This document shows, one piece after another, positions 21,050-26,029 of a stretch of 64,000 bases of DNA. This DNA is from Gemmatimonadota bacterium. Lineage in GTDB: Bacteria; Gemmatimonadota; Gemmatimonadetes; Palauibacterales; KS3-K002. The notes beneath the pieces are model-generated. The model worked only from the letters and a program-made list of their open reading frames with translations. It had not been told where the DNA came from and ran no database searches. The stretch lies in NCBI GenBank assembly GCA_036475815.1, contig JAZGAL010000175.1, positions 4,403-68,402 of the forward strand, written 5' to 3'. The number at the start of each line of letters is the position of its first letter. The first letter of the stretch is position 1. The translations under genes were made by a program, and so were the position numbers.

Positions 21050-22513
21050 ATGTTCGCCTCGAGAAAGTCGTTGGACTACGAGTCGGTCATAGGGCTGGAG
21101 ATCCATGTCCAGCTCAAGACTCGCAGCAAGATGTTCTGCGGCTGTCGTGTGGAGTTCGGCGCACCGCCCAATACCCTCGTTTGCCCCGTCTGTCTCGGCT
21201 TGCCTGGCGCGCTTCCCGTGGTCAACGAGCGTGCCGTGGAGCTCGCCGTTCTCGCGGCGCTTGCCCTCAGCTCGCAGGTGAACCTGCGATCGGTCTTCGC
21301 GCGTAAGAACTACTTCTATCCCGATCTTCCCAAGGGCTACCAGATCAGCCAGTACGATCGACCGCTGGCCACGGGTGGTTGGCTGGACTTGCCGGGGGAA
21401 GACGAACGAGAGAGCACGCGGCTTCGCATCCGGCGACTGCATGTCGAGGAGGACTCCGGCAAGTCACTCCACGATCGTTTCCCGGGCCAGACTGCCATCG
21501 ACCTGAATCGGGCGGGCGTGCCGCTCCTCGAGATCGTCACCGAGCCCGATCTCCGTTCACCCGCTCAGGCGCGGGCGTTCCTGGGCGGGCTGAAGCAGAT
21601 CCTCGAGTACCTGGAGGTGAGCGACTGCAACATGGAGGAGGGGAGTCTCCGGGTGGATGCGAACGTATCAGTTCGGCCGGCGGGCAGCGAAGAGCTGCCG
21701 ACGAAAACTGAAGTCAAGAACATGAACTCGTTCAGCCAGTTGGAAAAAGCGCTGGAACACGAGGCGGCACGACACAAAGCCATTCTGATGTCCGGCGGTG
21801 AGATCGAGCGTCAGACGATGTTGTGGGATCCAGCTCGCAGCCAGGCGCGGCCGATGCGTGGCAAGGAAGAAGTGCATGACTATCGTTACTTTCCCGAGCC
21901 AGATCTGCCCGCACTTCAGCTGAGTGACGAGGTCATCGCGCGCGCCACTGCGCGGTTGCCGGAACTGCCGAGAGAGAAAGCGCTGCGTTTCATGACCGAG
22001 TACAACCTGCCTGCCTACGATGCCGAAGTCCTGAGCGCGACCCGGGAGCTGGCCGACTACTTCGAGGCGGTGGCGCGGGTGACTGCCAATCCGAAGCTGG
22101 CTTCGAACTGGGTGATGGTCGAAGTCCTCGCCGTGGCCAACGAGCTTGGGGTGAGGATAGGCGAGTTGGGTATCGAACCGGCGCGGGTCGCCGGGCTAAT
22201 CACGATGGTATCGGGGGGCACGCTGTCACATGGTCTGGCTCGGCAAGTCCTGCGCGAGATGGTCGGGAGCGGCAAGACGGCCGAGCAGGTGATCGAGGAA
22301 GAGAATCTGAGCCAGGTCAGCGACAGCGCCACGATAGAGGGTTGGGTCGCTGAAGTAATGGCCGGGAACCCAAGGGAGGTTGAGCGCTACCGCAGCGGTG
22401 AAGATAAGTTGCTCGCCTTTTTCATCGGACAGGTGATGCGGAAGTCACAGGGCAAAGCCGATCCGGATCGGTTGCGCGAGGTGCTGAGGGAAGCGCTGGG
22501 CGAGAACCGCTGA
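21050..22513 (+). CDS. gatB: Asp/Glu-tRNA amidotransferase subunit B
   Basis: 487 aa. YESVIGLEIHVQL, KMFCGC, CPVCLGLPGALP and the C-terminal YqeY-like domain are present. Confidence 0.95.
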   Translation: MFASRKSLDYESVIGLEIHVQLKTRSKMFCGCRVEFGAPPNTLVCPVCLGLPGALPVVNERAVELAVLAALALSSQVNLRSVFARKNYFYPDLPKGYQISQYDRPLATGGWLDLPGEDERESTRLRIRRLHVEEDSGKSLHDRFPGQTAIDLNRAGVPLLEIVTEPDLRSPAQARAFLGGLKQILEYLEVSDCNMEEGSLRVDANVSVRPAGSEELPTKTEVKNMNSFSQLEKALEHEAARHKAILMSGGEIERQTMLWDPARSQARPMRGKEEVHDYRYFPEPDLPALQLSDEVIARATARLPELPREKALRFMTEYNLPAYDAEVLSATRELADYFEAVARVTANPKLASNWVMVEVLAVANELGVRIGELGIEPARVAGLITMVSGGTLSHGLARQVLREMVGSGKTAEQVIEEENLSQVSDSATIEGWVAEVMAGNPREVERYRSGEDKLLAFFIGQVMRKSQGKADPDRLREVLREALGENR

Positions 22514-22535
22514 GAGCGGGCGTATCGACTGTTCG

Positions 22536-23552
22536 TTACTTCCGTCCCTGCGATACCTTCTTAATAGCTCGGGCGAGGCGTCTCCGCTTCGGCTTGATGA
22601 GCTTCGCCTTCAGGTGGACGAGATCGATCCACATTCCCTCGGCGCTCAGGCGCTGCTCCCACCAACCCGGCAACTGCTCTGGTAGCTGAAAGTGCTCGTC
22701 GGCCAATCGCGCGAGCTGCTCCTGGCGCTGTGTCTTTCCCATGGGTCCGTACTCGCGGTTCAGGCGCTTCGCTTCGCCGAGCGCCCGCTCGCCGGTCGGG
22801 TCGAGGAACGCGGTCGGCGATTGCTTGCGATTGATCAGATAGTCTGCCGCGAAGTCGAACGTGTACCGCACCCAGGTTGCGATCTCACGGTCGTCCACGT
22901 CCCAGCGCGAGTAATCCAGCACGCGATCGAACATGGCTTGCCACGTACTGTCGTCGGCGAGCCGGATAATTCCTCTGAAGATGCGGCGGTTGGTCTGGAA
23001 GCTGAAAATCGCCCGGTCCAGAACTCTATCCATCAATTGGTCGTTATGGGCGTGGTCGACCTCCGTGATCAGGTGGTATGCGGCGCGCAGGTAGGCCTGA
23101 CCCAGATGGATGTCCATCCGATGCTCCCAGTAGGAGTGACCGATCATCTGCGTGTTGGCCGAGGTCACAAGCTTGCGCGGCAAGAAGTAGTTGTGGGCTA
23201 TGGTATCGCCGGCCAGGTGAGTCAGGTAGCCGAGGGCGCAGGCGCGTGTCGCGTCCGTGTCGGCAGCCTCGTAGAGCTCCTCTCCGACATGCCAGTGGTG
23301 GCAGTTGCGCCCGACCGGTGCGTATTTCTTCCCTACCGTGATGTCCGCGGCGATGCAGCCGTACAAGAAGTCGTAGGGGAAACGGCGAAGAATCCCGGCC
23401 ACGGCCGCCGGGAACAGGCCCAGCGCGGCGAGCAACTCGGTGCCCACGAGAATGTGCATGCCCGGACCCCAGGCCCAGGCCGGCTCCGGCAAAAGGAGAA
23501 TCGCGACCCCAGCGATTCCCAGGATCTCGAGCCAACGCATTCGCCGTGTCAC
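22536..23552 (-). CDS. zinc-dependent phospholipase C-like, metal-dependent hydrolase family protein (secreted)
   Basis: 338 aa. Signal peptide ending PAWA followed by WGPGMH. HLAGDTIAHNYF and other His/Asp clusters are present. 4-nt overlap with the upstream YtxH gene. Confidence 0.65.
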   Translation of the reverse strand: MTRRMRWLEILGIAGVAILLLPEPAWAWGPGMHILVGTELLAALGLFPAAVAGILRRFPYDFLYGCIAADITVGKKYAPVGRNCHHWHVGEELYEAADTDATRACALGYLTHLAGDTIAHNYFLPRKLVTSANTQMIGHSYWEHRMDIHLGQAYLRAAYHLITEVDHAHNDQLMDRVLDRAIFSFQTNRRIFRGIIRLADDSTWQAMFDRVLDYSRWDVDDREIATWVRYTFDFAADYLINRKQSPTAFLDPTGERALGEAKRLNREYGPMGKTQRQEQLARLADEHFQLPEQLPGWWEQRLSAEGMWIDLVHLKAKLIKPKRRRLARAIKKVSQGRK

Positions 23553-23914
23553 CGGCGGAGCCTCCCATACTCGCGTCGCAACGTCCTGCGGGCCTGTTCT
23601 AGCTGCTGGCGGGCCATATCACCGAACTCCTCCCGGGCCGCCTCCAGGCCGGCGCTGAGTTCCTCACGGAAATCGGCGGCAGCGTGACGGCTGGCTTTGC
23701 GGATCTCCTCGAGAGCTGCGGCGCCGGACCTTCGCACCCGACGGTAGCCTTCCCGAAGGCCGGCAGCTGCCCTCCTGCGCCGCCGCTCAGGAATCCAGGT
23801 GACGGCAAGCCCGATCCCGACAAGCGCGCCGATTGTGAACGCGAGGAGGAACTCGGTGCTGTGGCGCCGCTCGACATTCTCGGAGTCGTCCCCGCGTTCG
23901 GACTGCGCGACCAT
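23549..23914 (-). CDS. YtxH-like membrane-anchored stress protein
   Basis: 121 aa. A single TM helix (FLLAFTIGALVGIGLAVTWIP) is followed by a long charged helix. This matches the YtxH architecture. Confidence 0.6.
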   Translation of the reverse strand: MVAQSERGDDSENVERRHSTEFLLAFTIGALVGIGLAVTWIPERRRRRAAAGLREGYRRVRRSGAAALEEIRKASRHAAADFREELSAGLEAAREEFGDMARQQLEQARRTLRREYGRLRR

Positions 23915-23920
23915 AGCGTG

Positions 23921-24388
23921 TTACTCCTCCTCGGTCTCTTTGTCCGAGCGCTCGTCGTCCCGCCGCCGGCGAAGCAACTTCGCGCCCGCGCGGATGCCGC
24001 GGAGTGTCGAGGTGGCGGTCAGCACCGTGTCCTCCACTTCTCCCTGAACGACATCGATAAGCGCGCCGAGCTCCTGTACCCGCTCGTCCGCCGACTCCAG
24101 GGCTTCCGCGAGCCGGTCATTGGCGATCGATATCGTCTCGCTGACGCGCTCGACTTCCTTGCGGACCGACATCACGAGGAAGTTCAGGTTCTCGCCTATC
24201 GCGCGCGCGCGGTCCAGGACTGGCCTCGCATCGTGCCCGATCGTGGCCAGAGCGTCGTCCACGTTCTTGATGCTGCGCGTGATGCGGAAGATGGCCCGCG
24301 CCAGCAAGACCATGCCAATGCCCAACACCAGCATTGAGAGAATGCCGAGAGATTGAATCACTACGGTTAGCCACGCCACACCTTCCAC
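23921..24388 (-). CDS. DUF948-like membrane-anchored coiled-coil protein
   Basis: 155 aa. An N-terminal TM helix is followed by long amphipathic helices (ITRSIKNVDDALATIGHDARPVLDRA...). DUF948 and YtxH are commonly adjacent. Confidence 0.65.
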   Translation of the reverse strand: MEGVAWLTVVIQSLGILSMLVLGIGMVLLARAIFRITRSIKNVDDALATIGHDARPVLDRARAIGENLNFLVMSVRKEVERVSETISIANDRLAEALESADERVQELGALIDVVQGEVEDTVLTATSTLRGIRAGAKLLRRRRDDERSDKETEEE

Positions 24389-24401
24389 GCGACACCCCCT
24401 G

Positions 24402-25655
24402 TCATCTCATCTGTTTGCCAATGCGGCCCGAGTGCGCCATCTGCCGGTCAAGCTCGCCGGCACGCTCGAGTACGTTGCGAACCAGGAACGGCCCGATCAA
24501 GTCGCTGATGCCCACGGCGATCACCACCGTGGCGAAGAACATGTTGACCGCAGCTGTAAGTTCAGGCCCCGTAGGAACATAGATAAGGACGAACGAAATC
24601 GCCATGGCCAGCGAGAGGCCGCCCTGCGGCGTGAGGGCCAGGCCGAATCGGCGCGGTAGTTCGATGCCCCGTGGGCCGAAACGTTGGGCCACCACGCCGC
24701 CCGCCCACTTGGCCAGAATTCGGGCCGCAACGTACGCGGCGACCAGGGGGGCGATCCACCAGGACGAGAACTGCAGGAGCGCGCCGGCCACGACCAACAT
24801 CATGATGTAGATCGGTTTCTCCCAACCCGACAGGGCGGCGTAAACGCGGCGGCGCATCGGCGAAAGATTCCCGATGATCACACCTGCGATCATGCACACG
24901 AAGAGGGGTGAAAGCGAAAGATAGAATGAGGTGCCGGACGCGAAGAGCACCAGGCCGATCAAGAGCAGCGTGAGTTCTTGAGTCCGCGGGCGAATGCGTG
25001 TGAGTGAAAGGAACACGACGCCGAAGAAGATGCCCAGGAGAGCCGAGAAGGTGAACCACTCGAGAGGCGATAGCGCTATTCCGCCTCCGGGCAGCTCGGC
25101 GTGATGCGCCGCATGGGTAAGCCCCAGGACCACGATCCCAACGGCCGCGTCCAGGCTTGCTACATAGAAGAGCAGCCGGGTGATCCGGCCACGCGCCCTG
25201 TAGGTGTTCGAGATAAGCGCTATCGCCGCAGGCGTGGAGACGCTGGCGGTGGCGGCGGCCGCGAGCAGGATCGCATCGATTCTGAGCGAGAACCAGGAAT
25301 CGGCGATCAGGTAGGCGATGCCGAAGACGATGCAGAACGCCACCAGCGCCTGTAGCCAGGCGAGGGCCATGTAGCCCGCCGGGAACTGGCTTAGGTGGCC
25401 GCGGTCCAACTGCAGCCCGAACAGCACACCGATCCAGCCCAATCCGAGCGCCAGCAGCGGGGTGAGCAGGTTCACCGTCTCTCCGGACAGGATCTGCGTC
25501 GCGTGCGGCCCCAGCGCGAACCCGAGGAAGAGAAACGGTCCGCCGATGGCGATGAAGATCCGCGGTCCCAGTGGCACCTGCCGCTGAGAGAAGGTGAGTT
25601 CGGCCCCCAGCAGCCCGATCAGCACCAGAAGCAGAACGGTGATGATCGGGTTCAC
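24402..25655 (-). CDS. cation:proton antiporter (CPA2/Kef-like membrane domain only)
   Basis: 417 aa with ~12 predicted TM helices. The N-terminus LLLVLIGLLGAELTF is typical of the Na_H_Exchanger family. There is no C-terminal KTN/RCK domain. GTG start in a GTGA overlap with the upstream gene. Confidence 0.85.
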   Translation of the reverse strand: MNPIITVLLLVLIGLLGAELTFSQRQVPLGPRIFIAIGGPFLFLGFALGPHATQILSGETVNLLTPLLALGLGWIGVLFGLQLDRGHLSQFPAGYMALAWLQALVAFCIVFGIAYLIADSWFSLRIDAILLAAAATASVSTPAAIALISNTYRARGRITRLLFYVASLDAAVGIVVLGLTHAAHHAELPGGGIALSPLEWFTFSALLGIFFGVVFLSLTRIRPRTQELTLLLIGLVLFASGTSFYLSLSPLFVCMIAGVIIGNLSPMRRRVYAALSGWEKPIYIMMLVVAGALLQFSSWWIAPLVAAYVAARILAKWAGGVVAQRFGPRGIELPRRFGLALTPQGGLSLAMAISFVLIYVPTGPELTAAVNMFFATVVIAVGISDLIGPFLVRNVLERAGELDRQMAHSGRIGKQMR

Positions 25656-26008
25656 AATTCGGACTCTTCCCCGAGCTCCGGCGCGATGCCCTCTGCCCGG
25701 GAAACTGGGATGGTGAAAACGATGCCTGTGCCTGGCTCCTCCATGCTGCCGCAGACGTCCTGGATGACGGCGAAGGCCGCATCAGCCTTCTCGTCGTCAT
25801 CGATCACGCTGAGGATCGTGTAGTTCTGTGCCCGTGATCGCGAGAGCAGCGTTTGTATTCCCGCGAAGAGCGGGATGTCGTGGGTCAGGACGCGACCCAT
25901 CCCTTCGCTGTTGATGATCGTAGCACCGGTGATCCCCAACTCCAAAAATCCCGACAGGACATCGTCGAGCGCCTCTGCCTGGTTAATCACCGCCACCAGT
26001 AATTGCAT
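25652..26008 (-). CDS. PII-like small signal-transduction protein
   Basis: 118 aa. A beta-alpha-beta x2 pattern aligns by eye to GlnB-type PII. MQLLVAVINQAEALDDVLSGFLELGITGATIINSEGMGR is followed by a T-loop-like segment, then YTILSVIDDDEKADAAFAVIQD...GTGIVFTIPV. Confidence 0.6.
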   Translation of the reverse strand: MQLLVAVINQAEALDDVLSGFLELGITGATIINSEGMGRVLTHDIPLFAGIQTLLSRSRAQNYTILSVIDDDEKADAAFAVIQDVCGSMEEPGTGIVFTIPVSRAEGIAPELGEESEL

Positions 26009-26029
26009 AGAAGTGCCTCTTCGCTACAG

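Follow-up and report, generated by a model that had tools for sequence, protein, structure and literature searches.

A PII-like gene lies between PtsN-like EIIA and exchanger genes

We analysed a stretch of 64,000 nucleotides (nt) from a Gemmatimonadota bacterium (GenBank assembly GCA_036475815.1, contig JAZGAL010000175.1, positions 4,403 to 68,402; hereafter the window, whose own coordinates are used throughout). We focused on a small gene for a PII-like protein of 118 amino acids (aa). PII proteins and the nitrogen-related phosphotransferase system (PTS-Ntr) are among the most widespread bacterial signalling systems, and they are usually studied apart, for nitrogen and carbon. In the window, the PII-like gene follows a gene for a PtsN-like enzyme IIA (EIIA) and precedes a gene for an exchanger of the cation/proton antiporter (CPA) fold, all on the minus strand (Table 1), and a survey of relatives supports a tie between this PII subfamily and genes for cation/proton antiporters that goes far beyond gene order kept by descent.

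The forward-strand bases at 25652-25654 are 'tca', which is TGA on the minus strand, and those at 25653-25655 are 'cac', which is GTG; the PII stop and the exchanger start therefore share four bases, GTGA. This coupling had been reported in the initial annotation of the window, which gave no strand and overlooked the EIIA gene that ends 21 nt upstream. The GTG start of the exchanger gene is credible: the N-terminus (MNP...) is common to relatives in which the exchanger start shows the same overlap with the PII stop, e.g. locus L010. The first possible exchanger start lies at -4 in 37 of the 66 Gemmatimonadota-type loci (defined below) in which an exchanger open reading frame (ORF) was found.

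Three further same-strand genes follow the exchanger gene at gaps of 13, 6 and -4 nt, and a gene for a Zn-dependent phospholipase-C-like protein closes the co-directional run. With such spacing (21 nt, the overlap, then 13, 6 and -4 nt), the unit from the EIIA gene to the phospholipase-C-like gene looks like a six-gene operon, read from a 99-bp divergent region shared with murA. A scan of 22000-27500 found no sigma-70-like promoter and no relevant Rfam or riboswitch match, the one microRNA-family match being inside murA and far below threshold; terminator-like sites in the same interval fell only within coding sequence, none between genes. The DUF948-like, 121-aa and phospholipase-C-like genes accompany the EIIA-PII-exchanger module only inside the Gemmatimonadota.

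Table 1. Features of the unit, in window coordinates
Feature	Position	Strand	Remarks
PtsN-like EIIA gene, 154 aa	26030..26494	minus	First gene of the unit; PF00359, TIGR01419, conserved residues
AAGAGG, Shine-Dalgarno-like	26016..26021	minus	7 nt before the PII-like ATG, within the EIIA-PII spacer
PII-like protein gene, 118 aa	25652..26008	minus	ATG start, TGA stop; ORF listing, Pfam, alignment, model
PII-like codons 37-61	25826..25900	minus	T-loop, 3 residues longer than in E. coli GlnB; conserved motif near Pro46 and Phe48
GTGA overlap	25652..25655	minus	PII stop (TGA) and exchanger start (GTG); read from the sequence
Exchanger gene, 417 aa	24402..25655	minus	Predicted membrane-only CPA-fold cation/proton exchanger, without a cytoplasmic regulatory domain
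DUF948-like gene, 155 aa	23921..24388	minus	13 nt after the exchanger gene; PF06103 at 30.5 bits, below cut-off
121-aa gene	23549..23914	minus	6 nt after the DUF948-like gene; no family assigned
Zn-dependent phospholipase-C-like gene, 338 aa	22536..23552	minus	PF00882 at 69.8 bits; start overlaps the preceding gene by 4 nt

The small gene encodes a divergent PII protein

The 118-aa protein matches the P-II family of Pfam (PF00543) over residues 4-108 with 37.3 bits, above the cut-off of 25, and falls far short of the cut-offs of the NCBIfam equivalog models for canonical GlnB/GlnK, GlnB NF008111 (21.3 bits, cut-off 202) and NF007946 (15.5 bits, cut-off 181). Among proteins of known structure, the best sequence match is PII from Neisseria (2gw8), with an expectation value (E) of 3e-5 for the single sequence and 1.1e-6 for a profile of 99 sequences. 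The subfamily thus has no solved structure among its members.

An AlphaFold2 model built on the 99-sequence alignment reached a predicted local distance difference test score (pLDDT) of 86.1 and a predicted template modelling score of 0.78. The model shows a double beta-alpha-beta core in the order b1-a1-b2-[loop 37-55]-b3-a2-b4, its strands spanning residues 2-8, 30-34, 62-69 and 95-101 and its helices residues 11-23 and 72-86. The loop between the second and third strands is partly helical and of lower confidence, with a pLDDT of 63-71 over codons 37-61. Every match that Foldseek listed for the model was a PII protein, the first being 3ta1 (E 1.5e-6). With VIA-align, GlnK1 (7p52) gave a Z of 13.1 with a root-mean-square deviation of 3.9 over 97 aligned residues. 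The canonical PII proteins as a group scored Z 12-13.1 and SbtB proteins Z 11.6-11.9. The best matches are thus GlnB and GlnK, and an attempt to separate them from SbtB by fold alone fails, the Z scores being tied. PstA chains were reached by the family profile only at E 0.33; PstA/DarA and CutA were not among the 50 entries that VIA-align listed, which excludes neither. The double beta-alpha-beta pattern with a T-loop-like insert, which had been read from the sequence at the outset, is borne out by the Pfam match, the model and the PII-led fold searches, and the protein is a divergent PII family member.

The ligand cleft and the T-loop differ from those of canonical PII

Residues were mapped by HMMER alignment to E. 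coli GlnB (1pil), in which loop positions are possibly off by 1-2; the roles of Q39, Y51, K58, K90, R101 and R103 in canonical PII we take to be established structural knowledge. The scaffold of the nucleotide cleft is kept: G27/T29 of GlnB correspond to G28/T30, G35/G37 to G36/G38 and G87/G89 to G93/G95, the adenine-pocket segments here reading G28-A-T30, G36-M-G38 and G93-T-G95. G28, T30, G36 and G95, which are located on cleft elements, are each at least 90% conserved in the 99 sequences (alignment A1). The phosphate-binding K90, R101 and R103 are replaced by Ile96, Gly107 and Ala109, and the Mg/2-oxoglutarate ligands Q39 and K58 by Val40 and Asn62, the latter invariant in a second alignment of 12 sequences (A2). 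For Synechococcus elongatus PII, the corresponding K58N exchange is described as abolishing 2-oxoglutarate binding while ATP binding stays (PMC6908673). Because the glycine/threonine scaffold is kept while the phosphate and Mg/2-oxoglutarate residues have changed, the cleft probably continues to bind a ligand, though not Mg-ATP plus 2-oxoglutarate.

The T-loop-like stretch, residues 40-61, is 3 residues longer than the T-loop of E. coli GlnB and carries a conserved hydrophobic motif, in which Pro46 is invariant and Phe48 at least 90% conserved (alignment A2). The modifiable Y51 corresponds to Thr53, and the position of Ser49 is taken by Ile51. With Thr53 at the Tyr51 position, we conclude that uridylylation at the usual tyrosine is impossible, in agreement with the earlier remark that the canonical GlnB uridylylation context is missing.

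As a guide to possible ligands, a diadenylate cyclase gene was found in all 5 module-bearing genomes tested and in 11 of 14 controls. A class III cyclase occurred in 3 of 5 such genomes; G003 (99% complete) was among those without a match. From this distribution, cyclic di-AMP (c-di-AMP) is a possible ligand and cyclic AMP a less likely one.

The upstream EIIA resembles PtsN and keeps its phospho-acceptor histidine

The protein encoded upstream matches PF00359 (PTS_EIIA_2) with 101.1 bits. Its closest resemblance is to PtsN (TIGR01419, 91.8 bits), below the equivalog cut-off of 138.7. The phospho-acceptor His67 is invariant, together with Arg51 and Glu52, in 57 of 57 aligned EIIA neighbours of PII relatives. 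The window comes from a 2.5-Mb Gemmatimonadota assembly (77% complete) with genes for HPr, an EI N-terminal domain and HPr kinase, and so a phosphorelay able to charge His67 is present in this genome. The genome holds three EIIA_2 genes, namely that of the module, a stand-alone one and one fused to CBS domains. The last encodes a 301-aa fusion of EIIA_2 with a CBS pair and lies on contig C96 (L149:1054-1959, minus strand) between the succinyl-CoA ligase alpha gene and ndk.

The downstream protein is predicted to be a membrane-only exchanger

The exchanger matches PF00999 with 56.6 bits (cut-off 26.2), and searches by sequence gave no match in NCBIfam and none in the PDB. Its model, with a pLDDT of 89.9, is helical through residue 416. 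Its best Foldseek matches were SOS1, PaNhaP, NapA, NHA2 and KefC, with E values from 2e-9 to 1e-6; for SOS1, PaNhaP and NapA, the values were 2e-9 to 2e-8, with TM-scores of 0.56-0.73 normalised to the query. Structures of CPA1 and CPA2 thus match equally well, and the label 'CPA2', given to the exchanger in the initial annotation, is not justified. As the model is helical to its last residues, we take the protein to be a CPA-fold exchanger without a cytoplasmic regulatory domain.

The fifth core helix of such proteins carries the ion-binding pair, Asp-Asp in CPA2 and Asn-Asp in CPA1. In a MAFFT alignment (A3), Asp-Ala of the window's exchanger stands under the Asp-Asp of the canonical relatives at loci L100 and L107, and the Lys of a later helix is kept. 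At the distant loci with two tandem exchanger genes (see below), the first, which is the closest type to the window's, varies at this pair (DD, DS or SG) and scores below the Pfam threshold.

The PII subfamily is linked to two classes of antiporter gene

A word-indexed search recovered 706 relatives of the PII-like protein at E <= 0.001, and an exhaustive search of 50%-identity representatives recovered 742, of which 264 at E <= 1e-10. The names given to a few relatives suggest an occurrence outside the Gemmatimonadota, among others in Spirochaetota and candidate division CSSED10-310, and in one Atlas cluster Spirochaetota is the most frequent phylum. For gene context, we compiled 143 loci, 63 from species genomes (all Gemmatimonadota) and the best 80 of 545 confirmed metagenome loci. 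The latter were found by one degenerate peptide pattern, and the sample is biased towards relatives of the window protein; the context counts cover related, non-independent loci. Neighbours were typed by tblastn with queries of Pfam-checked families, and 78 neighbouring ORFs were themselves checked against Pfam. The loci were split by identity and by the murA and phospholipase-C-like (PLC) flanks, independently of the feature counted, into 92 Gemmatimonadota-type loci and 51 distant loci, the latter with at most 55% identity and without murA/PLC flanks. Seven distant loci with less than 700 bp downstream were left unjudged, giving 44 (Table 2).

Table 2. Gene arrangements around the PII-like gene
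Set	Arrangement	Loci
Gemmatimonadota-type	EIIA-PII-exchanger	68
Gemmatimonadota-type	PII-exchanger	1
Gemmatimonadota-type	EIIA-PII-CN hydrolase	3
Gemmatimonadota-type	PII-CN hydrolase	1
Gemmatimonadota-type	EIIA-PII-other	4
Gemmatimonadota-type	PII with neither neighbour	11
Gemmatimonadota-type	Too short	4
Distant	EIIA-PII-NHE (CPA-type exchanger), often two tandem exchanger genes	24
Distant	PII-NHE	4
Distant	?-PII-NHE	1
Distant	PII-NHE-EIIA	1
Distant	PII-EIIA-Mrp	9
Distant	?-PII-Mrp	2

Within the Gemmatimonadota, the whole interval of murA, EIIA, PII, exchanger, DUF948, 121-aa gene, PLC-like gene and gatB is syntenic, and for this reason the Gemmatimonadota-type counts prove little alone. The synteny raises the possibility that the adjacency is merely inherited gene order in a conserved murA-gatB interval, functionally meaningless. 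The distant loci argue against it. An antiporter gene stands directly downstream of the PII gene in 41 of the 44 judged distant loci, 30 of CPA type and 11 of Mrp type, the exceptions being L105, L118 and L135; the Mrp loci encode MnhE, MrpF, MnhG, MbhD/E, MnhB, MnhC and MnhD-type subunits. The trio recurs where no flanking genes are shared and also with another antiporter class. EIIA and PII occur in both orders and fused, and the codons that end one gene and begin the next either overlap or are no more than 8 nt apart; among 29 distant exchanger loci, 20 have a PII-to-exchanger gap of no more than 8 nt. We consider meaningless inherited order very improbable and disfavour it; this survey of co-occurrence with transporter genes, which the initial annotation had suggested, instead supports a tie to antiporters.

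A quick IQ-TREE tree groups all Mrp-linked proteins in a single clade (13 rows, SH-aLRT 99), separate from a clade of the Gemmatimonadota proteins (92 rows, SH-aLRT 97), and several separate exchanger-linked clades lie between these two. Because the tandem-exchanger form is seen in families f7 and f8, some of the distant loci may derive from further classes within the Gemmatimonadota.

The EIIA gene adjoins the PII gene, before or after it, in 115 of the 143 loci (77 of 92 Gemmatimonadota-type and 38 of 51 distant), and is a more constant partner of the PII-like gene than the exchanger is. The exhaustive search of 50%-identity representatives also recovered two proteins in which EIIA and PII are fused, P0187 (289 aa) and P0263 (275 aa). 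When relatives of the window protein were searched specifically for longer, fused forms, none scored, which is weak evidence.

A two-protein switch is proposed for the exchanger

On these grounds, we propose that the PII-like protein and the PtsN-like EIIA form a two-protein cytoplasmic switch that gates the downstream exchanger post-translationally, a proposal to which we give an even chance of being right. In this mechanism, the EIIA would report the phosphorylation state of the regulatory PTS through His67. The PII-like protein, a predicted trimer, would bind in its inter-subunit clefts a small molecule other than ATP-Mg-2-oxoglutarate, the candidates being an adenine nucleotide or c-di-AMP. 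The pair would dock on the exchanger via the conserved T-loop, and thereby supply in trans the regulatory domain that the bare exchanger is without, mirroring the inhibition of E. coli YcgO by PtsN via the CorC domain. It is the exchanger's lack of a CorC-like domain that suggests the PII-like protein may supply such a domain in trans. Either the PII-like protein or the EIIA may make the contact with the exchanger.

The second of these options leads to a different route, in which the PII-like protein acts only on the EIIA, on its phosphorylation or its availability, and the EIIA alone regulates the antiporter as PtsN regulates YcgO. In E. coli, unphosphorylated PtsN is reported to bind a CPA1 K+/H+ exchanger, YcgO, directly at its CorC domain and to inhibit it (PMC11808508; bioRxiv 10.64898/2026.08.14.744764). 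The EIIA-PII fusions, the EIIA-PII pairs without an exchanger at L135, L086 and L090, and the position of the EIIA gene between the PII and antiporter genes in Mrp-type loci would all suit this route. Against it, PII and antiporter genes occur together at L107 and L098 without an EIIA gene across 3.4-3.5 kb upstream, and L030, L097 and L102 are likewise without one. In CPA-type loci it is the PII gene that abuts or overlaps the exchanger gene, and the exchanger has no CorC-like domain for an EIIA to bind. We regard regulation by the EIIA alone as unlikely, yet as a serious rival.

Several observations weigh against the proposed switch. CPA and Mrp antiporters are structurally unrelated, so that one docking surface for both classes is unlikely. 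PII proteins are trimers. Solved CPA exchangers, YcgO among them, are described as dimers (bioRxiv 10.64898/2026.08.14.744764), and PII control seemingly is restricted to trimeric transporters according to a review (PMC10710835); a dimeric CPA exchanger set against this limit is a real difficulty. The Asp-Ala pair, as aligned, makes the substrate and the activity of the exchanger uncertain. At 11 Gemmatimonadota-type loci, the PII gene has neither EIIA nor exchanger adjacent to it (10 PII-other and 1 ?-PII-other). A CN-hydrolase gene overlaps or follows the PII gene at four loci (L032, L033, L035 and L041), and of the four EIIA-PII-other loci, L086 and L090 carry EIIA-PII without an exchanger, L042 and L061 having exchanger fragments further off.

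The same looseness appears at the level of genomes. In a sample of 61 Gemmatimonadota genomes (including the unpublished G053, on which no claim is made), 18 carry a relative of the PII-like protein at E <= 1e-8. An exchanger relative lies directly beside the PII gene in 10 of the 18; in G002 it is 1.4 kb away, and in G024 the locus is cut by the contig end. The best exchanger-like match of G011, G026 and G036 is located elsewhere in the genome, and with this query no exchanger relative was found at E <= 1e-8 in G046, G056 and G059, which are 97-100% complete. The PII-like protein is thus not strictly tied to the exchanger. Both the genome of the window (77% complete) and G045 (97% complete) have it as their sole PF00543 match, and it could therefore be a general regulator.

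As a general PII regulator, the protein would have many targets, the exchanger being one of them or a mere neighbour, and its divergence would be lineage drift. This would accommodate its persistence at the 11 loci without EIIA or exchanger, its place ahead of the four CN-hydrolase genes, and fusions of the subfamily to other partners, PrmC-PII (P0166) and PII-PilZ (P0183). Nine of the 18 genomes yielded no further PF00543 match. A canonical-type PII is also present in 8 of them, which argues against simple replacement, and G046 has a weak partial second match. Further points speak against general regulation: Q39, K58, K90, R101, R103 and Tyr51 are all absent, and the linkage to antiporter genes holds with differing flanks in 41 of the 44 judged distant loci. 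In addition, none of the five genomes that carry the divergent PII alone (G000, G045, G026, G036 and G059) yielded an Amt ammonium transporter, against all 14 controls. Among the genomes searched, lineages with only the divergent PII thus seem to be without the classical GlnK-AmtB pair, and the PII-like protein is therefore no back-up GlnK. We think a general regulator improbable, yet likewise a serious rival. Canonical PII was likewise not found in these five genomes, four of which are 97-99% complete.

Read against these results, the idea of the initial annotation that the protein is a dedicated, transporter-bound sensor rather than a nitrogen regulator survives in part. The linkage to antiporters stands, and the words 'dedicated' and 'transporter-bound' are too strong in view of the loci without EIIA or exchanger and of G046, G056 and G059. 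The contrast with a nitrogen regulator is partly supported, with the missing 2-oxoglutarate ligands and the missing Amt in its favour and the general regulator kept as a rival.

At its broadest, the two-protein switch would belong to a PII subfamily that dropped ATP-Mg-2-oxoglutarate sensing, joined EIIA physically, in some cases within one polypeptide, and became a portable module that gates the structurally unrelated CPA and Mrp antiporters in several phyla and may respond to c-di-AMP or an adenine nucleotide, with the PII-like protein as a trans stand-in for RCK and CorC domains. We advance this extension tentatively, as a possibility on the doubtful side; if true, PII and PTS-Ntr, classically 'nitrogen' systems, would be merged into a single switch for ion and pH homeostasis.

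Comparison with known PII and PtsN systems

GlnK-AmtB and SbtB-SbtA are described as PII-transporter pairs (PMC10710835). The module resembles GlnK-AmtB in the PII fold, with GlnK and GlnB as the best structural matches, in a small gene coupled to a transporter gene, and in the T-loop as the likely docking element. It differs in having a CPA-fold exchanger instead of Amt, in lacking the equivalents of Y51, Q39, K58, K90, R101 and R103, in its EIIA partner, and in the mismatch between a PII trimer and the dimeric CPA exchangers.

SbtB-SbtA offers the precedent of a non-nitrogen PII-like protein co-transcribed with a Na+-linked transporter, and the SbtB structures score within about 1 Z unit of the canonical PII matches. 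SbtB is described as binding several adenine nucleotides and c-di-AMP, and as having a C-terminal redox R-loop with a disulfide between two cysteines. In contrast, the window protein ends without such an R-loop and has a single cysteine, so that no disulfide of the SbtB type would be possible; its transporter neighbour is of the PF00999 family and not SbtA, and SbtB is not known to be paired with an EIIA. PotN of lactobacilli is a PII subfamily encoded in a polyamine ABC-transporter operon, which is reported to bind ATP/ADP and not 2-oxoglutarate; it differs from the module in its transporter class and involves no EIIA.

What the module shares with PtsN-YcgO is the link between a cation/proton exchanger and a PtsN-like EIIA whose phospho-histidine is conserved. 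YcgO, however, has RCK and CorC domains of its own, whereas the exchanger here is predicted to have no cytoplasmic domain, and a separate PII-like protein stands between the EIIA and the exchanger. The window's EIIA also differs from PtsN in scoring below the equivalog cut-off and in being one of three EIIA_2 genes of its genome.

PII-transporter pairs and control of exchangers by PtsN are known kinds of system; the module would join both. We found no published description of a PII-like/EIIA/antiporter module in a search that included bioRxiv 10.1101/2023.08.10.552651 and lay outside subscription journals and supplements. The form of the module in the window is that of the Gemmatimonadota: EIIA and PII are encoded by separate genes, and there is one exchanger gene, whose start overlaps the PII stop in GTGA. 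A conserved module with natural fusions points to a direct link from metabolic state to ion, pH and osmotic homeostasis. If the proposed switch is real, it shows how exchangers without a regulatory domain of their own are controlled, and it extends PII control to non-trimeric transporters, beyond the apparent limit given in the review (PMC10710835). The parts of the module are small and soluble, and thus amenable to standard binding and vesicle assays.

Other observations on the subfamily

At the four loci where a CN hydrolase (PF00795, 99-102 bits) replaces the exchanger, an ORF of 214-221 aa without a Pfam match comes next. A NadE-like identity of this ORF was considered and rejected, as no Pfam match was found at E <= 0.001 and only chance-level matches appeared at E <= 5.

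The two further fusions of the PII subfamily are a PrmC-type methyltransferase-PII protein of 422 aa (P0166) and a PII-PilZ protein of 405 aa (P0183). The PilZ fusion hints at a link to c-di-GMP, and either P0166 or P0183 is possibly a gene-calling read-through.

Finally, the assembled chromosome of record CP070722.1 holds two copies of the entire murA-EIIA-PII-exchanger stretch at different places (loci L010 and L021), with PII proteins 86% and 85% identical to that of the window. The two copies have arisen by segmental duplication or are an artefact of binning or assembly.

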